Source of the DNA: a virus
Direction: 5' to 3' (one strand)
Length of the DNA: 11,027 bases
Virus genome (UHGV): UHGV-0176277
The translations under genes and the position numbers were made by a program. Shown here piece by piece: positions 777 through 11,027 of the stretch. The notes under the pieces are model-generated. The model was not told the DNA's origin, did no database searches, and worked only from the letters and a program-made list of their open reading frames with translations. The stretch's first letter is position 1. Every line of letters begins with the position of its first letter.

Positions 777-2213
777 TCAGAATCCTCCTTTCTTCTTGGA
801 CTGCGGTTCCTCGCGTTCACGTCGGCGCATTTCAGCAGACTGTTGGTCTGTGTCATAAATAGCGCCATTTGCCTGAATGCAATACACCGTACCGGTATTG
901 CCATGACGATTGAGACGAAGGATTAGTTCGGTTTCACCAGGTGGAACACTGTCACCAAAAGCGCCTTCACGATGGATCCCAACCCAATAATCGCAATCCT
1001 GTTCAATCTGCCCTGTATCTCGTGAGTCACTTGGTAATGGGCGTTTATTGGTTCGGCTTTCCAGTGCGCGGTTAAGCTGCGTCAGAAGCACAACAACGCA
1101 ATCAAGCTCTTTGGCAAGGTTCTTCAGTCCTTTGGTGATCATGCCGTAAGCAAGGTCGTTGCGATCGGCCTTCTCAGCGGTCATTAGTGTCAGGTAATCG
1201 ACCAGAATCATGCCAACACATCCTTTTTCTCGCTTGATTCGACGGCTTTCGCTGACGATTTGAGCCAGAGATAATCCCGGCGTGTCGTCGATGTAAAGCA
1301 GGTCGATTTCACTCAAGCGATTGGCTGTTTCGATCGCCCTGTTGAAGTCACCATCGTAATCACCCTGATAGCCGTCATCAGCGTCATTTGTCGCCGGAAG
1401 GTAAAAAATATTCGGGTTAACACCAGACTTCTGCCCTACCAGTTTTTCCAGTATCTGGTCACCTGGCATTTCAAGGCTGAACATAAGAGCGGGCTTTTTC
1501 TCATGCACTGCGCAGTTGATTGCCATCTGGCTGTATAGCGTCGTTTTCCCCATCTTAGGGCGAGCACCAATGACAAACAGAGAGCCTTTCACCAGACCTT
1601 TCGGTGACAGCATCCTGTCCAGCGATGGGATCCCTGTGCTCATTCCTCGTTGTTCGCCTGATGGGTCAAATCGCTTCTCAAGGTCGCTAACCCAGTCTTC
1701 CATGACCTCGCCAAATGAGCGAAGGCCGCGACGCGATCCGGTTTTTGCATGGTCTGTCAGTTGCGTGAAAATCGCCTGAATAGCTTCGTACTTCTGCGTT
1801 GCAGTCATTCCGTTGCGGGAATAGAGCAATTCCGTCGCTTCAGTCATGCGGTTGATGGCGTAGCGTTCCATTGCGGTTTCGCGAACCTGCATTGCATAGG
1901 CAACGATGTTTGCGGCGCTCGGCGTGTTCTTTGCGATCTCAGAGATATAAGCAAAACCGCCAACAGACGCCGTTAACGATTTACGCTCCAGTTCATCGAA
2001 AAGCGTCAGGCCATCTACTGGCTTTTGCTCCCGGTGCATTCTGGTTATTTCTTCGAAAAGGATTTTGTGTGGTCGGCTGTAAAATGAATCAGGCTTCAGC
2101 ATCGCCAGAACTTTCTGGACGCGCTCACTGCTGTCATCATCCAGAAGCAATCCACCAATCACCGCCTGCTCTGCCTCGATGCTATGTGGCGGCGCATAAA
2201 AATTATCGGTCAT
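777..2213 (-). CDS. Replicative DNA helicase, DnaB family (phage P22 gp12-like)
   Basis: N-terminus MTDNFYAPPHSIEAEQAVIGGLLLD matches the DnaB N-terminal signature; Walker A GARPKMGKTT; start ATG at 2213 with GAGGGTGA SD, overlapping the upstream O-like gene end (2203). The track's longer ORF (to 2267) has no support for the extra 18 codons. Confidence 0.9.
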   Translation of the reverse strand: MTDNFYAPPHSIEAEQAVIGGLLLDDDSSERVQKVLAMLKPDSFYSRPHKILFEEITRMHREQKPVDGLTLFDELERKSLTASVGGFAYISEIAKNTPSAANIVAYAMQVRETAMERYAINRMTEATELLYSRNGMTATQKYEAIQAIFTQLTDHAKTGSRRGLRSFGEVMEDWVSDLEKRFDPSGEQRGMSTGIPSLDRMLSPKGLVKGSLFVIGARPKMGKTTLYSQMAINCAVHEKKPALMFSLEMPGDQILEKLVGQKSGVNPNIFYLPATNDADDGYQGDYDGDFNRAIETANRLSEIDLLYIDDTPGLSLAQIVSESRRIKREKGCVGMILVDYLTLMTAEKADRNDLAYGMITKGLKNLAKELDCVVVLLTQLNRALESRTNKRPLPSDSRDTGQIEQDCDYWVGIHREGAFGDSVPPGETELILRLNRHGNTGTVYCIQANGAIYDTDQQSAEMRRREREEPQSKKKGGF

Positions 2214-3093
2214 CGTGTTCACCCTCACGAACTTTAAGGTAGGTATTGTCGTTAAGCAGGAAATCAAATCCCTTTTTGTGCCAGACGGTTCCGCGTTGAT
2301 GGTTTGGGCGTTCTTCGAACATCCATCGGCAATTTTCGCCTACGTAGCTCAAATAATTTCTCCAGTCCTGCATCGTGAAACCATGCCCGTCAAGCTGGCG
2401 GGTTATCACTCCGGCTTTGCGCCAGAACGTTCGGATCTGGTTTTTACGCTTGTCATTCAGTGCGCGGATTCTTGGCGCTTCAGGAAGGATTTCGTGGTAA
2501 GCATCGACAACATCCTGACAGCTAACGGAAGGTTTTTTCTTGTCAGACTTTTTGTCTGCTGTGGCACTCTCTAATACGTCAGTATTAGAGATATTATTTA
2601 TATTATTGTTTATGGACAACCGTTGGACAACCGTTGGACAATCTCCGCTGAGAGCCGCGCCATCACTGGTGTTTGCGTTGGACAACCGTTGGACAACCGT
2701 TGGACAATTTTTTGCCTGAAAATCGTCATATTTAACGATTGTAAACAGGCTAAATTTCTTCCCCATCGAGCAAATATTAAGCATCCCTTTCGACTCAAAA
2801 GTCCGTAATAAGCTCCGAACTTTGTTGTCGGGGATGAATGTTTCTCTGACCAGCGACGGGCGTCCAGTTATCATCTGACCGCGATCAACAGTTATCGGAC
2901 CGATATCCGTATTGACGACAGTAGATTCGTGATTAGCCTTGAGGATTAAGTGAAGCCAAAGATGTACTGCCTGAGAGTCCTTATAGAGCCTGCTGTCCAT
3001 AAACTGGCGGTGTATAGAGACATACCCCATACTGGATGCCTCCTGATGTTGTACAGGGTTATGCCTGTAATCAGCTAACTTAACGACGCCCAT
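2203..3093 (-). CDS. Replication initiation protein (lambda O / P22 gp18 functional analogue) with the origin embedded in its coding sequence
   Basis: Lies between cII and the helicase; coding region contains phased direct repeats that translate as repeated CPTVVQRLS; ATG at 3093 has AGGAG 6 nt upstream; an alternative start at 3030 (MGYVSIH...) has AGGAGG 8 nt upstream, so the true N-terminus is uncertain. Confidence 0.7.
   Translation of the reverse strand: MGVVKLADYRHNPVQHQEASSMGYVSIHRQFMDSRLYKDSQAVHLWLHLILKANHESTVVNTDIGPITVDRGQMITGRPSLVRETFIPDNKVRSLLRTFESKGMLNICSMGKKFSLFTIVKYDDFQAKNCPTVVQRLSNANTSDGAALSGDCPTVVQRLSINNNINNISNTDVLESATADKKSDKKKPSVSCQDVVDAYHEILPEAPRIRALNDKRKNQIRTFWRKAGVITRQLDGHGFTMQDWRNYLSYVGENCRWMFEERPNHQRGTVWHKKGFDFLLNDNTYLKVREGEHDDR
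2614..2707. repeat. Origin iterons: six copies of an 11-bp direct repeat (GGACAACCGTT) in two triplets, flanked by an AT-rich tract
   Basis: GGACAA begins at 2614, 2625, 2636 and at 2680, 2691, 2702; all six are in 11-bp register with a 44-bp GC-rich spacer; AT-rich 2582-2612 (tattagagatattatttatattattgtttat) lies on the downstream side of the O-like reading frame, as in ori-lambda. Confidence 0.75.
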
Positions 3094-3976: not shown

Positions 3977-4693
3977 ATGGAAAATAAAAAATCACTGACG
4001 ACAGAACAGCTCGAAGACGCTAAGCGGCTTAAGGCTTTGTATGAGTCAAAAAAGAAAGAATTGGGAATAACCCAATACTCAATCGCTGATGAACTGGGTA
4101 TCACCCAAGGAGCGGTAGGGCATTATCTTAATGGCAGAAACGCGCTAAACGTTGAGGTTGCATCTGGTTTTGCACGGCTGTTGCAAGTCTCAATTGCTGA
4201 TTTTAGCCAGTCAATTGCTGCCAAGGTTGCAGAACAGGCAGAAAGCCTTAAGAGCGATGCCAACGTAAGGTATGCAGGGGAATACAGAGCAGGAAAGAGG
4301 TATCCGGTGTTAAGCAGTATCCAGGCTGGCTCGTGGTGTGAAGCATGCGAACCATACACCATTAAAGACATAGATGTTTGGCTTGAGTCTGACGCGCATA
4401 TTCAAGGTAATGCGTTCTGGCTTAAAGTGGAAGGTGATTCAATGACGGCACCGGTTGGGTTAAGCATTCCAGAGGGGACATTCGTTCTTTTCGATACCGG
4501 AAGGGAGGCGATCAACGGCAGCTTGGTCATAGCAAAACTTTCTGACTCTAACGAAGCAACATTCAAGAAGCTGATAATCGACGGCGGAAATAAATACCTC
4601 AAGGGACTTAATCCTGCATGGCCTCTCGTGCCAATCAATGGAAACTGCAAGATTATAGGCGTTGCAATTGAGACAAAACTAAGGCTGGTTTGA
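3977..4693 (+). CDS. cI: CI repressor (HTH N-terminal domain plus S24/LexA-type autocleaving C-terminal domain)
   Basis: N-terminus ...LTTEQLEDAKRLKALYESKKKELGITQYSIADELGITQGAVGHYLNGRNALN parallels lambda CI; Ala-Gly cleavage site in SIQAGSW; catalytic Ser in EGDSMTAP and Lys in TFKKLI. Confidence 0.95.
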   Translation: MENKKSLTTEQLEDAKRLKALYESKKKELGITQYSIADELGITQGAVGHYLNGRNALNVEVASGFARLLQVSIADFSQSIAAKVAEQAESLKSDANVRYAGEYRAGKRYPVLSSIQAGSWCEACEPYTIKDIDVWLESDAHIQGNAFWLKVEGDSMTAPVGLSIPEGTFVLFDTGREAINGSLVIAKLSDSNEATFKKLIIDGGNKYLKGLNPAWPLVPINGNCKIIGVAIETKLRLV

Positions 4694-4710
4694 TCACGCA
4701 AGGGGCGATT

Positions 4711-5079
4711 ATGGTTGGAACCGCTATAGCAAGCTTTTTTGGGATGTTGGCAATCTCGACAATTTACGGCTTAGCGCATGCTTTTATTGCGAAATCTCTA
4801 TCAGAAAAAATAAGCCAGGCTTGGGCGCATAGATCAGCTCGTTTCATGATTCTGGTGATCATAGCAATACAAGGGATATCTGCATTTATCCTCTATGGAT
4901 CAAGCTTATACCTATTGTATCAAGGCGCGACATTTACGCCTTACACCAGTGATTACGGAACTCTATACGATGGTAGTGAAGACATCACTGTGGCTTGGAT
5001 CGTCTTTGGTTTATCTATGGCCGTGTCTGTTGTAGCAGACATCATTAAGGTAATTCTCGTCTTAACCTTCGCTGACTAA
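4711..5079 (+). CDS. Integral membrane protein (122 aa, about three TM helices), unknown function, directly downstream of cI
   Basis: ATG at 4711 with AGGGG SD 5 nt upstream, 17 nt after the cI stop, same strand with no intervening promoter or terminator; hydrophobic segments VGTAIASFFGMLAISTIYGLAHAFIA, FMILVIIAIQGISAFILYGSSLYLLY, ITVAWIVFGLSMAVSVVADIIKVILVLTF. The track's TTG start at 4690 is less likely. Confidence 0.6.
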   Translation: MVGTAIASFFGMLAISTIYGLAHAFIAKSLSEKISQAWAHRSARFMILVIIAIQGISAFILYGSSLYLLYQGATFTPYTSDYGTLYDGSEDITVAWIVFGLSMAVSVVADIIKVILVLTFAD

Positions 5080-6751: not shown

Positions 6752-6922
6752 ATGCAACAGTTCGCTATTGCAGGGGCGGCATCGGTTCGCCCTTTCAACC
6801 CGATTTTATCGGTACAGCATTCACGAAAAAACATTTTAACCGGAGCAGACTTTAAACAACCAAGAATGAAAAGCTTGCTCGAAAAGCTTTGGGATATTTT
6901 GAAACAACAAGGCCGTCCATGA
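6752..6922 (+). CDS. cIII: CIII-like protein (56 aa; FtsH/HflB protease inhibitor that stabilises CII)
   Basis: MQQFAIAGAA... N-terminus and ...SLLEKLWDILKQQGRP parallel lambda CIII (MQYAIAGW...LRDGWKRLIDILNQPGVP as I recall it); AGGAG SD 6 nt upstream of ATG 6752. Confidence 0.65.
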   Translation: MQQFAIAGAASVRPFNPILSVQHSRKNILTGADFKQPRMKSLLEKLWDILKQQGRP

Positions 6923-7077
6923 GTTTTACGGATAACTGGTCAGACGAAGAATTCATTCGTCAGATGAAAGAATTAATCGGTAACGAAGGAGATATTCATG
7001 TCACTTGCAACTACAGTGAAGGAGAGCAAGTTACAGAGACGCATGTACACGCAGAAAGCTCTCTGGTATCGCCATAA
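6919..7077 (+). CDS. Hypothetical small acidic protein (52 aa) at the kil-equivalent position
   Basis: ATG at 6919 overlaps the cIII-like stop (ATGA); translation MSFTDNWSDEEFIRQMKELIGNEGDIHVTCNYSEGEQ...; no similarity to lambda Kil that I can see. Confidence 0.45.
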   Translation: MSFTDNWSDEEFIRQMKELIGNEGDIHVTCNYSEGEQVTETHVHAESSLVSP

Positions 7078-7176
7078 TGGCGACCGCGAAGGAATGCGGG
7101 TATGCCTTAATTTGTCCCGAGTCGAAGTATTAAATCAGCGTTATTTTCTTGGGCCATGTCCATTCTGAGGTGATTT

Positions 7177-7884
7177 ATGGATTTGAATAAATTAGATGAG
7201 CCATTCTGCCCTGAAGATATCGAATGGCGAATACAGCAAAGCGGTAAAACACGCGATGGCAAGGTGTGGGCTATGGTGCTGGCTTATGTCACGAACCGGG
7301 CAATCATGAGACGCCTGGACGATGTTTGCGGCAAAGCAGGATGGCGCAATGAATACCGCGATATTCCCAACAACGGAGGCGTTGAATGCGGCATATCAAT
7401 CAGGATTGATTCCGAATGGGTAACCAAATGGGATGCCGCTGAAAACACGCAGGTAGAAGCCGTCAAAGGCGGTCGTTCCGGTGCAATGAAGCGCGCTGCC
7501 GTTCAGTGGGGAATCGGTCGGTATCTGTATAACCTTGAGGAAGGTTTCGCACAAACATCTCTCGATAAAAAGCAGGGATGGCACAGGGCAAAACTCAAGG
7601 ATGGAACAGGATTTTACTGGCTCCCTCCATCGCTGCCGGGATGGGCAATACCAGCATCAGATAACAAACCATCACCAGAAAATACCAACCAGAAATCTCC
7701 ATCGGTTGACTGCGAACAAATCCTGAAAGACTTCAGCGATTATGCGTCAACAGAAACTGACAAGAAAAAACTCATCGAGCGTTATCAGCGTGACTGGCAA
7801 TTAATGGCTGGCAACGAGGAGGCGCAGGCTAAATGCGTTCAGGTAATGAACATCAGAGTTAACGAACTAAAACAGGCGGCATAA
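7177..7884 (+). CDS. Single-strand annealing protein, Rad52/22 superfamily (phage recombinase)
   Basis: Central block GKAGWRNEYRDIP...GGVECGISIRID...GAMKRAAVQWGIGRYLYNL resembles the Rad52-family annealing-domain signature; GAGGTGA SD; immediately followed by ssb. Confidence 0.75.
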   Translation: MDLNKLDEPFCPEDIEWRIQQSGKTRDGKVWAMVLAYVTNRAIMRRLDDVCGKAGWRNEYRDIPNNGGVECGISIRIDSEWVTKWDAAENTQVEAVKGGRSGAMKRAAVQWGIGRYLYNLEEGFAQTSLDKKQGWHRAKLKDGTGFYWLPPSLPGWAIPASDNKPSPENTNQKSPSVDCEQILKDFSDYASTETDKKKLIERYQRDWQLMAGNEEAQAKCVQVMNIRVNELKQAA

Positions 7885-8358
7885 ATGGGAAGTAGAGGCG
7901 TAAATAAGGTGATCATTATTGGTCGCCTTGGGCATGATCCAGAAATCAGATATTCACCATCAGGAACGGCATTTGCAAACCTTACAGTTGCTACGTCAGA
8001 ACAATGGCGTGATAAGCAAACTGGAGAGCAAAAGGAGCAGACGGAGTGGCACCGTGTGGTAATGAGCGGGAAACTGGCAGAAATTGCCAGCGAATATCTG
8101 CGAAAAGGCTCTGAGGTTTATCTTGAAGGCAAATTACGGACAAGAAAATGGCAGGATCAAAGCGGACAGGATAGGTTCACTACCGAAGTCATCGTGGGCG
8201 TTGGTGGAACCATGCAAATGCTTGGTGGCAAGCAAGGAGGCAATGAACAGTCTTCACCTCAGCGAAATAACGGTCAGCAACAAAGACAGCAGCCTCAGCA
8301 GCAGGGAAATCACAGCGAACCACCTATGAACTTCGACGATTCGGATATTCCGTTCTAG
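7885..8358 (+). CDS. ssb: Single-stranded DNA-binding protein (phage-encoded SSB)
   Basis: [59 protein letters not shown]... is near-colinear with E. coli SSB; Gly/Gln-rich linker and acidic tail DDSDIPF. Confidence 0.95.
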
Positions 8359-8367
8359 GAGCTGAAT

Positions 8368-8847
8368 ATGAAAATCTGCTCAAGATGCCATCAACAGAAG
8401 GAAGAAAGGGACTTTCAAATCAGAAGAGCATCCAGAGATGGATTAACTGCCGCTTGCCGTGCTTGCCTGGCTGAATACGACAAAGAACGCGCTGGATTGC
8501 CACATCGAGTATCAGCAAGGAGAGAATATCAATCATCGGAACGCGGCAGAGAACGGTGTAACGCAGCCAAAAAGCGGTTCATTCAGAGCAACCCATGGAA
8601 AAGAAAAGCCCACATCATTGTGGGTAATTTTTTGCGCGACGGTAAGCTAATCCGACCACCACAATGTGAGTGCTGCGGATCAGAATGTAAACCACAGGCG
8701 CACCACTGCGACTACAGTAAACCAACCGATGTGATGTGGCTCTGCAAGTCATGTCATGTCGAGTGGCACAAACATAACAAACCTATCTACCCAGATGAGG
8801 AACCAGTAACTCTCCCCTTCCCTCGTCACGCTATTCACGCAATTTAA
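8368..8847 (+). CDS. Cysteine-rich zinc-binding protein with an HNH-like motif (putative HNH nuclease or zinc-ribbon protein)
   Basis: N-terminal CSRCH...CRAC pair; C-terminal CECCGSEC...AHHCDY...WLCKSCHVEWHKH resembles the CxxC...HH...CxxCH arrangement of HNH nucleases but lacks a clear Asn; AGGAG SD 6 nt upstream. Confidence 0.5.
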   Translation: MKICSRCHQQKEERDFQIRRASRDGLTAACRACLAEYDKERAGLPHRVSARREYQSSERGRERCNAAKKRFIQSNPWKRKAHIIVGNFLRDGKLIRPPQCECCGSECKPQAHHCDYSKPTDVMWLCKSCHVEWHKHNKPIYPDEEPVTLPFPRHAIHAI

Positions 8848-8860
8848 TCAGGAGAAAATC

Positions 8861-9157
8861 ATGCCAGCGCCTCTGTATGGTGCGGATGACCCGCGCCGCT
8901 GTTCCGGCAATTCCGTATCGGAGGTGCTGGATAAATTCAGAAAAAACTACGACCTGATAATGTCTCTACCGCAGGAAACGAAAGAGGAAAAGGAATTTCG
9001 CCACTGTATATGGCTTGCAGAGAAAGAAGAACGCGAGCGAATTTACCAGACATCAATCCGACCATTCCGCAAAGCCACATATACCCACTTCCCTGAATAT
9101 ATCGACCCGCGCCTGCGTAATTACCGCTCACGCTATTGCGCTATCAGTAATGACTGA
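8861..9157 (+). CDS. Hypothetical protein (98 aa)
   Basis: AGGAG SD 6 nt upstream of the ATG; ORF fills the gap between flanking genes; no recognisable motif. Confidence 0.55.
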   Translation: MPAPLYGADDPRRCSGNSVSEVLDKFRKNYDLIMSLPQETKEEKEFRHCIWLAEKEERERIYQTSIRPFRKATYTHFPEYIDPRLRNYRSRYCAISND

Positions 9158-9167
9158 GGAATTAACA

Positions 9168-9458
9168 ATGAAAACAATGAAGCTAAACATCGACCTCGGA
9201 AAATACGTTATTACCGTAACCAAACACGATCTGATTCTTAGCGAAAGAGGAATTATCAAAGAAGGCGAGAATGCAGGGAAAGAAACACTAAGCCGTATCG
9301 GTTATTACAGCAAGTTTGAGCATCTGGTTAAAGAGTTATGCAACCGTGAAATTCTGTTATCTCAGGCGCGGACGCTACAGGATATTCAGCAGCATATCGA
9401 AGCTTTAGGTATGTCACTTAGCATGGCTATTGACCAGTTCGTGGAGAGTAAATCATGA
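9168..9458 (+). CDS. Hypothetical protein (96 aa)
   Basis: ATG at 9168 with GAGGAA SD; the track's 147-aa ORF from 9015 overlaps the previous gene in another frame, so the internal start is preferred. Confidence 0.55.
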
Positions 9459-9622
9459 GAGGACTTGCATACAATCCCGGCATTCTTCCGGCAGAAATGA
9501 TTATTCGCCAACGCGTAAAGCCAATGCCATCGAGAGAGGAATTACTTAAGAGAAATTCTTTTCCATCAGTGAATGAAAACAAATATCTGAATGCGATGTG
9601 GCGCAAAGGAGGCAGCCAGTGA
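9455..9622 (+). CDS. Small hypothetical protein (55 aa), absent from the supplied ORF track
   Basis: ATG at 9455 overlaps the upstream stop (ATGA) with GGAGAG SD 6 nt upstream; its TGA stop overlaps the next gene's GTG start (GTGA); translation [55 protein letters not shown]. Confidence 0.45.
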
Positions 9623-10263
9623 CTAACCGTTTTTACATGATGTGCTCGCGTGAAACTGTGGGCAATAACGCTTCATTCCATTGCCATAACGGCAATGGTT
9701 ACAGTTCTGATATCGATCGCGCTCATGTTTACACGCTGGAAGAAGCCCAAAAAGCCTGGAATTGTGGGCGAGATATCGATCAGCCTGTTTGCGCTGATAG
9801 CGTGGATGCAATGGCAGTGTGGCACGTTGATTGCCAGTACATCCCTACAGAAAGCCTGATTGAGTCAGATTGCACTGCGTATGTGGCCTACAAAAAAGGT
9901 AGCTGGAACGGCAACGATGTTTACTGGCTTCAACACGGTGGATTGCCAACAGATGACTTCAGTAAAGCGACCATCTTTAGCGTCGCCAACAAAAACGAAC
10001 CAGGAATAGTTTGGTTGCCATTTTCCATTGCTGATGCAGCAAAGCGCAGGACGTTCAATATCAATAACTTTAACCGCAGAACAATGGTTCAGGGCGCAGG
10101 TTTGGTCATGCCTGACTGGTTGAAAGAGCAGAACAGAAGAAAGAAGTCGCGAAGCGGGAAGGTGCGTTGGAATTGTCCGCATTGCGGAAAAATCTCCTGG
10201 CAGTACAGCCCATATGATTTTGAAGGCTGTAGTGATTACAACTGTGAAGGATGGCGAGAATGA
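9619..10263 (+). CDS. Hypothetical protein with C-terminal zinc-ribbon motif (about 214 aa)
   Basis: GTG at 9619 preceded by AGGAGG 6 nt upstream (preferred over the track's 9598); C-terminus [29 protein letters not shown] has CxxC...C..C spacing; several additional conserved-looking Cys/His. Confidence 0.6.
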
Positions 10264-10673
10264 CAATTGACTATCAGGCACTGCGTGATGCGGCAGAAGC
10301 AATAAAAATAGCAGCCACACCACAAAAATTGCTGGCATTTCGTATGAAGGTCACACCTCAGGTTGTGCTGGCACTACTGGATGAACGGGAAAGGAACCAG
10401 CAATACATCAAATCCCGCGACCAGGAGAACGAGGAAATTGCGCTAACGGTAGGGAAGCTGCGCGTTGAGCTTGAAGCAGAAAAACAGCGGGCAAAAGTTC
10501 TATTTATGGAAAATGCTCGGCTTAAGTCAGGCATAGCCGGTCTGATACACCTCGGTATTCGATATGCAGATGTTGAGGTCATGAAAATTGCTGGAGATGC
10601 CCAGCTTTCTACCCCATGCACTGACAGCATCATAAACAGCATTGCAACAGGCATTCGCATCAAAGGAGAGTGA
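10260..10673 (+). CDS. Hypothetical early-region protein, possibly Ead/Ea22-like (137 aa)
   Basis: ATG at 10260 overlaps the upstream stop (ATGA); [19 protein letters not shown]... N-terminus and central heptad-like charged region (coiled coil) resemble prophage Ea22-like proteins as I recall them. Confidence 0.5.
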   Translation: MTIDYQALRDAAEAIKIAATPQKLLAFRMKVTPQVVLALLDERERNQQYIKSRDQENEEIALTVGKLRVELEAEKQRAKVLFMENARLKSGIAGLIHLGIRYADVEVMKIAGDAQLSTPCTDSIINSIATGIRIKGE

Positions 10674-10674
10674 G

Positions 10675-11027
10675 ATGGCCACTTTCACCGACAAAGAACT
10701 GATTAAAGAAATCAAAGAGCGAATCGGCAGTCTGGACGTGCGAGACAATATTGAGCGCCGGGCTTATGAAATTGCTCTGGCATCGCTGGAAGCGGAGCCT
10801 GTAGCGTCATGCATTATTGAAGATGGGGGGATGTGTGTTGACGGGTTCGGTGAGTATGTGGGTCACTCGCTGCCTGATGGAACGCACCAGCTTTACACTG
10901 CCCCTCCAGTGCCGGTAGTGCCGGAAGAAGCAACTCCGGAAAACGTAGAAATGCTCTCTGGCTATGTTTCCACGTACAAATTAACCGATAGCGAGCGCGA
11001 TATTGCTGCCGGAATATGGAACGCCTG
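10675..11027 (+). CDS. Hypothetical protein, 5-prime part only (continues beyond window end), possibly Ea22-like
   Basis: ATG at 10675, 1 nt after the previous stop; open with no stop for 117 codons to the window edge (MATFTDKELIKEIKERIGSLDVRDNIERRAYEIALASLEAEP...LYTAPPVPVVPEE...). Confidence 0.5.
   Translation, partial: MATFTDKELIKEIKERIGSLDVRDNIERRAYEIALASLEAEPVASCIIEDGGMCVDGFGEYVGHSLPDGTHQLYTAPPVPVVPEEATPENVEMLSGYVSTYKLTDSERDIAAGIWNA

Follow-up and report, generated by a model that had tools for sequence, protein, structure and literature searches.

Conserved overlapping junctions in a very probable mosaic of accessory genes distal to abc2 in a P22/Sf6-like lambdoid prophage

The virus genome UHGV-0176277, analysed here as a single stretch of 11,027 bp (the window), ends in six tightly packed open reading frames (ORFs) whose arrangement raises the question of whether they constitute one system of cooperating genes or a series of separately exchangeable ones. 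An earlier note, made from the sequence alone, had described these ORFs as a co-translated operon of unknown genes in the early-left accessory region of a lambdoid prophage, where anti-defence or host-takeover genes are often carried. We consider it very probable that the stretch is a mosaic part of the early-left (PL) operon, in which the gene for the anti-RecBCD protein Abc2 is followed by interchangeable ea modules that are joined by shared adaptors and whose genes act singly.

Conserved junctions and gene exchange

The six ORFs were confirmed on the plus strand, from 8861 to the window end, using both the ORF list and the raw sequence. They comprise ORF1 (8861-9157, 98 amino acids (aa)), ORF2 (9168-9458, 96 aa), ORF3 (9455-9622, 55 aa), ORF4 (9619-10263, 214 aa, with a GTG start at 9619), ORF5 (10260-10673, 137 aa) and ORF6, which starts at 10675, runs beyond 11027 and is cut by the window end after at least 117 aa. 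Neighbouring ORFs overlap in ATGA at 9455-9458 (ORF2/ORF3), GTGA at 9619-9622 (ORF3/ORF4) and ATGA at 10260-10263 (ORF4/ORF5), and the ORF5/ORF6 junction reads TGA-G-ATG, with position 10674 as the lone spacer base and the ATG at 10675. The chain and these four junctions were as previously described, but ORF1 and ORF2 do not overlap and are instead separated by a spacer of 10 nucleotides (nt) containing GAGGAA. A purine-rich Shine-Dalgarno-like sequence lies ahead of each ORF start, for example AAAGGAGG at 9605-9612.

The ORF3/ORF4 junction is contained in an 18-nt sequence, AAAGGAGGCAGCCAGTGA (9605-9622, plus strand), that carries the Shine-Dalgarno sequence and GTG start of ORF4 together with the TGA stop of ORF3. 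No match to it was found in 200 shuffles, and its occurrence by chance is not expected. The related loci gathered for comparison have homology to ORF4 or ORF3, and most of them come from close relatives in enterobacteria. The junction 5′ of ORF4 reads ...GGAGGCAnCCAGTGA in 80 of the 81 ORF4-anchored loci and ...CCAATGA in the other, and the sequence upstream of it is wholly different between groups. The proteins that terminate there include members of the ORF3 family (DUF2737), a 79-aa protein and Oad2/EaE-like proteins of several lengths, all of which end in (K/Q)GG(S/N/I)Q; other upstream contexts contain no ORF terminating at the junction in that frame. Viewed from the other side, the GTGA junction is kept in 79 of 80 DUF2737-anchored loci and the gene starting at the GTG varies, at least nine different next genes having been found, and in phage Sf6 the same adaptor stands ahead of gp22. 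Across 166 loci, the general motif GGAGG-N3-4-CA[GA]TGA marked 219 junctions, at which 19 upstream sequence clusters meet 10 downstream protein clusters in 35 different pairings.

A second adaptor, GGCATTCGCATCAAAGGAGAGTGAGATG (10650-10677, plus strand), consists of the end of ORF5 followed by the Shine-Dalgarno sequence and start of ORF6. Its first 26 bases, GGCATTCGCATCAAAGGAGAGTGAGA (the ORF5/ORF6 junction itself being GGCATTCGCATCAAAGGAGAGTGA), recur unchanged at the 3′ end of lambda ea22. The core of this adaptor, ATCAAAGGAGA[GA]TGA, occurred 80 times in related loci, between 23 upstream and 34 downstream sequences. The overlapping junctions are therefore short conserved adaptors, each combining a Shine-Dalgarno sequence, a downstream start and an upstream stop, and they join many unrelated gene pairs. 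Short conserved boundary sequences have long been proposed to account for lambdoid mosaicism (a concept of Clark et al. 2001, as cited in PMC3029335), and the Sf6 record annotates 'boundary sequence' (bsq) features in this region. By comparison of the loci, both adaptors are boundary sequences of this kind, short conserved junctions between non-homologous genes, and ORF2 to ORF6 are interchangeable accessory ea modules of the DUF5405, DUF2737, PHROG-2457, Ea22-family and EaA-like types, respectively.

In the mechanism that we propose, transcription of the stretch would proceed from PL and each adaptor would couple translation of a gene to that of the gene before it. The adaptors would also serve as short homologous joints at which recombination swaps modules, with the result that each relative would carry a different combination of genes, and the products of ORF2 to ORF6 would act individually, not as one system.

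Conservation of the coupling junctions, on which the earlier note had staked its reading, was found in both the ORF4-anchored and the DUF2737-anchored loci, and together with the tight coupling throughout the chain it also favours a rival explanation, namely that the six ORFs are inherited together as a single anti-defence or host-takeover operon and that their products cooperate in one function. Two recurrent pairings point the same way: Abc2 and DUF2737 adjoin, or are parted only by ORF2, in about 76 of the 80 DUF2737-anchored loci as well as in P22, Sf6 and HK446, and an Ea22-type start follows ORF4 in 80 of the 81 close loci and in P7. Gene content nevertheless varies among close relatives. 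No more than about 17 of the 80 DUF2737-anchored loci have ORF2, at least eight other genes replace ORF4 after DUF2737, and the ORF4-anchored loci have many architectures in which 13 different contexts precede ORF4; DUF2737 is also found without Abc2 in virulent Jersey-type phages. Among 45 ORF4 loci from different species there was no conserved partner, no neighbour family being present in more than five, and only 3 of 138 neighbours of these diverse ORF4 homologues were Ea22-like. A search of PADLOC-DB with ORF1 to ORF6 and the HNH-like gene upstream of them gave no match at E up to 0.1, and none of the six ORFs corresponds to a known defence model. Since the modules assort independently among close relatives and ORF4 lacks a conserved neighbour, the idea of a single functional unit did not hold, and we regard a cooperating operon as very improbable. 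The conservation of the junctions points instead to module exchange, not to a fixed multi-gene system.

Several considerations weigh against a mosaic of singly acting genes. The adaptors could have been conserved through selection for ribosome binding or coupling alone, not through recombination; because the loci were gathered by homology, sampling and common descent bias the counts of combinations; both translational coupling and transcription from PL are deduced from sequence; and homology gives no function to ORF2, ORF3, ORF4 or ORF6.

Abc2 and the early-left setting

ORF1 is identified by full-length homology as Abc2, the anti-RecBCD protein of P22. It matched PF11043 (Abc2, Anti-RecBCD protein 2) at E=3.7e-62 (207 bits; cut-off 25), where residues 1-98 aligned to profile positions 1-97, and phrog_656 at E=4e-55. 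The match to chain A of PDB entry 8B1T (E=1.6e-57) had about 90% identity, with residues 1-64 identical and Pro68 conserved. Entries 8B1T and 8B1U are cryo-electron microscopy structures of RecBCD-Abc2, in which residues 3-66 of Abc2 form the RecC-binding helical part; PpiB is engaged by Pro68 (PMC9836394). It has been proposed that Abc2 makes RecBCD load the phage recombinase in place of RecA (PMC9836394).

The minus strand of the window encodes NinB, a DnaB-type helicase, CII and Cro, and the plus strand encodes a CI-type repressor, followed by recombination genes and then by ORF1 to ORF6. Because of these placements of immunity and replication genes, the plus strand corresponds to the PL direction of a lambdoid prophage. 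Four plus-strand genes lie upstream of ORF1: a 52-aa homologue of HK446/HK75 Gp33 (6919-7077; tblastn, 86.5% identity over 52 aa, at 6919-7074), a Rad52/Erf-like single-strand annealing protein (7177-7884; PF04098, E=8e-26; phrog_1097, E=2e-129), a phage single-stranded DNA-binding protein (SSB; 7885-8358; PF00436, E=2e-38) and a Cys-rich, HNH-like endonuclease of the Sf6 gp26 type (8368-8847, 159 aa; phrog_2340 'endonuclease', E=3e-47). The last of these had no Pfam match; its C-terminus carries an HNH-like HHC...C..CH..H motif and its N-terminal residues 1-69 also match the Lar-like restriction-alleviation family phrog_5558. Gaps of 0 nt (Rad52/Erf-like to SSB), 9 nt (SSB to HNH-like) and 13 nt (HNH-like to ORF1) separate three of these genes from one another and from ORF1, such that the packed chain does not start at 8861, as had been supposed, but already extends upstream. 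A scan of the plus strand from 8861 to 11027 detected nothing resembling a sigma-70 promoter or a terminator, a result compatible with a single transcript; an Rfam scan of the window found no RNA family, and a repeat search of 7000-11027 found nothing meaningful.

On these grounds we place the stretch directly 3′ of the phage recombination genes, in the distal portion of the N-antiterminated early-left (PL) operon of a lambdoid prophage that resembles P22 and Sf6. Its description as an early-left accessory region equivalent to lambda exo-xis and to the ea region of P22 is borne out by the gene order, and the placement of the neighbouring genes supports the proposal of same-strand, translationally coupled PL-operon genes, coupling and transcription being predictions.

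The position of abc2 downstream of a Rad52/Erf-like gene on the same strand is shared with P22, Sf6 and HK446. In P22 the early-left order is erf-abc1-abc2-orf56(DUF2737)-eaE-orf45-eaF-eaD(Ea22-like)-eaI, which resembles the window in having a recombinase, abc2, DUF2737 and then ea genes including an Ea22-like one, tightly packed on the same strand; ORF1 is about 90% identical to P22 Abc2. The two differ in that the window has a Rad52/Erf-like gene, SSB and an HNH-like gene where P22 has Erf and Abc1, carries DUF5405 between abc2 and DUF2737, and has ORF4 in the place of EaE. Sf6 (genes 28-21) is closer still, with 98% nucleotide identity over 8861-9622 (abc2, gp24 DUF5405 and gp23 DUF2737), the same Erf-like, SSB and endonuclease genes upstream and the same GTGA adaptor after gp23. 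Past the adaptor, however, Sf6 has gp22 (DUF7739, 99 aa) where the window has ORF4, and its Ea22-like gene is a different one. Homologues in the window also follow the order of HK446, gp33-Erf-gp31-Abc2(gp30)-gp29(DUF5405)-gp28(DUF2737)-gp27(Oad2), with identities of 86.5% for Gp33, 96.9% for Abc2, 95.8% for gp29 and 94.2% for gp28. HK446 differs after DUF2737, where it has Oad2 in contrast to the unrelated ORF4, and its junction after gp28 is ATGA with another upstream end. The arrangement is thus already known from P22, Sf6 and HK446, and the stretch as a whole adds nothing new to it.

Two features were observed elsewhere in the window. A hydrophobic 129-aa ORF without a Pfam match (4690-5079, plus strand) begins 4 nt before the end of the CI-type repressor gene, in the position of rex/sieB-type exclusion genes. 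On the minus strand, the gene at 2203-3093 encodes a predicted replication protein without a Pfam match that carries the repeated peptide CPTVVQRLS.. twice (region 2540-2800); the repetition suggests direct DNA repeats within the gene, possibly origin iterons by analogy with lambda O.

The modules flanking ORF4

Pfam gathering scores were reached by ORF1, ORF2, ORF3 and ORF5, and all six ORFs matched PHROG families. With the profile matches of ORF4, this identifies the six as real genes and not chance ORFs. Nor are they all unknown, as the earlier note had it: ORF1 is the characterised Abc2, and ORF2, ORF3 and ORF5 belong to the named Pfam families DUF5405, DUF2737 and Ead_Ea22, respectively.

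The Pfam score that assigns ORF2 to DUF5405 (PF17399) is marginal, 24.7 bits where the cut-off is 21.6; phrog_154 (E=3e-32) and the PGAP name 'DUF5405 family protein' lend the assignment further support. Relatives of ORF2 are Sf6 gp24 and HK446 gp29 (95.8% identical). Presence or absence of ORF2 corresponds to an exact indel from its ATG to that of ORF3 (window 9168-9454; loci L004, L005, L009, L010 and others), and with or without it the same upstream TGAGGAATT..ATGA junction follows abc2. Judged by these loci, ORF2 is an optional module. PHROG 154 is labelled as a replication initiation protein, a role that found no support for ORF2, as there was no match to a Pfam or NCBIfam replication family or to a PDB entry; the original Sf6 record notes of gp24 merely that it is 'similar to P2 Orf83'. 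ORF2 also showed no similarity to Abc1.

ORF3, which the earlier note had counted in the chain although its 55 aa fell below the track threshold, proved to be a real gene. It matched DUF2737 (PF10930) over residues 1-51 at E=1.4e-32, with 111.8 bits against a cut-off of 25, and is related to P22 orf56 (which itself matches PF10930 at E=7e-42), Sf6 gp23 and HK446 gp28; tblastn found it in 635 phage records. Virulent siphoviruses of the Jersey and Kaguna types also carry the core of DUF2737 (residues 23-51), in a group of small early genes that lacks abc2, as at 2441-2596 of Salmonella virus VSt10, a Jerseyvirus (L219). Its presence without abc2 in those phages indicates that DUF2737 is not tied to Abc2. 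In the literature searched, DUF2737 is named once in passing, and DUF5405 and Upf87.6, the P7 homologue of ORF4, are not mentioned. Deletions obtained by experimental evolution of Sf6 lie in the nin region and have no bearing on this stretch.

The last two ORFs had been suggested to be Ea22-like, which is true of ORF5 and not of ORF6. ORF5 matched Ead/Ea22 (PF13935) at E=1e-20 (75.1 bits; cut-off 27). It shares 63% identity with residues 3-77 of lambda Ea22, which cover the N-terminal domain and coiled coil. Its last seven residues, GIRIKGE, are also those of lambda Ea22 and are encoded by the same DNA. Residues 78-130 have no similarity to lambda Ea22, and ORF5 therefore lacks the lambda-type C-terminal domain described by nuclear magnetic resonance (PMC10834534). 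Ea22 favours lysogeny in lambda and Shiga toxin (Stx) phages (PMC7093339, PMC10834534). The stretch as a whole resembles lambda exo-xis in lying between the recombination genes and xis/int, and differs from it in the absence of ea8.5, orf60a, orf61 and orf63.

ORF6 encodes an acidic protein that matched phrog_5117 (E=1e-33) and had no Pfam match; BLASTP against lambda Ea22 gave no significant similarity. Residues 1-45 alone are widely common, being shared with proteins annotated as EaA or Ea22 in Stx phages. The best full-length relative, a protein of 128 aa, was found at 3441-3827 of L087, from the E. coli MS1657 chromosome; nucleotide identity was about 97%, with 83% of the query covered. 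This relative sits in an SPI-7-type integrative island, not a prophage, between DUF2857-type and HNH endonuclease genes.

ORF4 and the anti-defence hotspot

ORF4 belongs to PHROG 2457 (phrog_2457, function unknown; E=5e-119) and had no match in Pfam, NCBIfam or PADLOC. Two observations back its GTG start: the N-terminus is conserved in the family, and one relative (L011) has an ATG at that position. The protein consists of an acidic N-terminal domain, a basic RRRK-type linker and a C-terminal Cys4 zinc ribbon, which had been reported before as CPHCG...C..C; four cysteines are indeed present, but the second pair is CxxxxC and not CxxC. The pattern is C186-x2-C189 ... C204-x4-C209 (CPxCG-x14-C-x4-C), and in 34 sequences C186, C189 and C204 were invariant and C209 was at least 90% conserved. 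An AlphaFold2 model built with the family alignment reached a predicted local distance difference test (pLDDT) score of 92.7 and a predicted template modelling (pTM) score of 0.76, and placed strands 182-185 and 192-195 at the ribbon (pLDDT about 85-91). With its Cys pairs on modelled beta-hairpin knuckles that are conserved in the family, the C-terminus is predicted to be a Cys4 zinc ribbon. The net charge of the N-terminal 150 residues is -6 (family mean -5.4) and that of the C-terminal part is +4.8 (family mean +6.9). No fold match to the model was found among solved structures. An internal two-fold repeat was hinted at by secondary structure and by a weak hhalign match (26 columns, P=0.007), and we do not claim it.

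A word-index search returned 160 homologues, all annotated 'hypothetical', with 50-99% identity and a range from Escherichia to Acinetobacter and Methyloprofundus, and a profile search returned 863 representatives at E<=1e-3, of which 202 reached E<=1e-10, most of them being 200-220 aa long; the longer relatives that were checked for fused domains gave no Pfam match. Carriers include lambdoid phages, IME10, P1-like plasmid prophages (P7 and SJ46), temperate Vibrio phages, Pseudomonas F116 and Burkholderia phiE058, and homologues were found in prophages of 45 species. The gene always lies among early genes, near recombination, Gam, methylase or integrase genes, and the annotated neighbours in the 45 loci comprise integrases, excisionase, DnaB, O, Dam, RecT and Ea22. 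As none of these neighbours is conserved, ORF4 behaves as a stand-alone module. One homologue (L015, approximately 4001-4642) has an in-frame TAG (..GTTTACTAGCTT..) and is probably a pseudogene.

P7 carries the homologue Upf87.6 (214 aa, about 94% nucleotide identity) in its hea operon, upf87.4-upf87.6-upf88.3, where it is followed across an overlapping junction by an Ead/Ea22-like gene. P7 differs in being a P1-like plasmid prophage with control by the C1 operator, another upstream gene and no abc2. With a C1 repressor operator in front of it, the hea operon (L003, 1490-3830) has the appearance of lambdoid ea modules transferred to a plasmid prophage of the P1 type. The P7 record notes Upf87.6 as a 'putative tyrosine phosphatase', a label that no family or fold match backs; ORF4 likewise showed no similarity to Ea8.5.

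The proposal that the region is a site of anti-defence genes is supported by Abc2 and by HK446, in which the position of ORF4 is occupied by an inhibitor of OLD. HK446/HK75 Gp33 is reported to be sufficient to trigger the P2 OLD abortive-infection nuclease, and gp27 of HK446 (Oad2), a relative of P22 EaE, to inhibit OLD directly; the authors term the recombination-linked locus an anti-defence hotspot (bioRxiv 10.64898/2026.07.10.737580, a July 2026 preprint). We tentatively suggest that ORF4 is a stand-alone early host-takeover or counter-defence factor, a possibility to which we give rather less than even chances. The basic linker and zinc ribbon would contact nucleic acid or a nucleic-acid enzyme, and a conserved target in the host would be bound by the N-terminal domain, which is acidic and of tandem alpha/beta build. 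In favour are the early-operon position in lambdoid phages, P7 and other temperate phages, the charge split and four cysteines conserved in the family, a weak resemblance to eL43-type zinc ribbons, and the location in the Oad2 slot of a window that keeps the Gp33 homologue. It is possible, and to us no less doubtful, that ORF4 defines a novel family of early phage effectors for counter-defence or host takeover, with an N-terminal fold lacking relatives among solved structures and a ribbon that contacts nucleic acid, spread among temperate phages of Gammaproteobacteria and situated here at the Abc2/Gp33/Oad2 hotspot. Against this stand the foundations of the hypothesis, which are position and charge, and the comparison of the ORF4 profile with PDB sequences, which gave weak, non-significant matches to eL43/L37a zinc ribbons (E about 0.1).

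Two more specific roles are less likely than a general counter-defence or host-takeover function. ORF4 might be a functional replacement for Oad2, inhibiting OLD-type or other defences that guard RecBCD and needed by a phage that carries both the Gp33 trigger and Abc2. It does occupy the Oad2 slot of HK446, directly after DUF2737 through a 4-nt overlap, in a locus that the preprint names as an anti-defence hotspot, and tblastn with Oad2 found nothing in the window, in which the Gp33 homologue is present. An Oad2-like gene could, however, lie beyond the window end at 11027, and ORF4, ORF5 and ORF6 compared with HK446 gp27 gave E values of 0.5 or worse and hence no sequence similarity to the Oad2/EaE family. 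In at least eight loci an Oad2/EaE-like gene stands directly upstream of ORF4, so that the two are not mutually exclusive, and the homologues in P1-like plasmid, Vibrio, Pseudomonas and Acinetobacter prophages bear no sign of a link to OLD. We therefore think such a replacement improbable. A somewhat better, though still unlikely, candidate role is that of a modulator of the lysis-lysogeny decision or host physiology, acting through DNA or RNA polymerase binding in the manner of the lambda exo-xis proteins (Ea22, Ea8.5 and Orf60a/61/63/73). Ea8.5 is an exo-xis instance of small zinc-binding proteins and transcription modulators. Besides the basic linker and zinc ribbon of ORF4, its location in the region of the exo-xis genes, which influence both lysogenisation and induction (PMC7093339, PMC3824215), is in favour of this role, as is the occurrence of small zinc-binding proteins and transcription modulators in the exo-xis region (PMC9239242). 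ORF4 has no similarity to Ea8.5 or to any Pfam family, however, and a regulatory circuit specific to lambda fits poorly with its occurrence in the non-integrating P1-like plasmid prophages.

The stretch provides a clean example of adaptors composed of a Shine-Dalgarno sequence, a start and a stop that couple translation and serve as points for swapping accessory genes, both roles being those proposed above. For annotation, it illustrates that the last residues of one gene can be dictated by the ribosome-binding site of the next, and that short ORFs such as DUF2737 are real. ORF4 is well conserved, confidently modelled, without a family assignment and located at the anti-defence hotspot of the 2026 preprint; its conservation and position make it a reasonable candidate for anti-defence screens.

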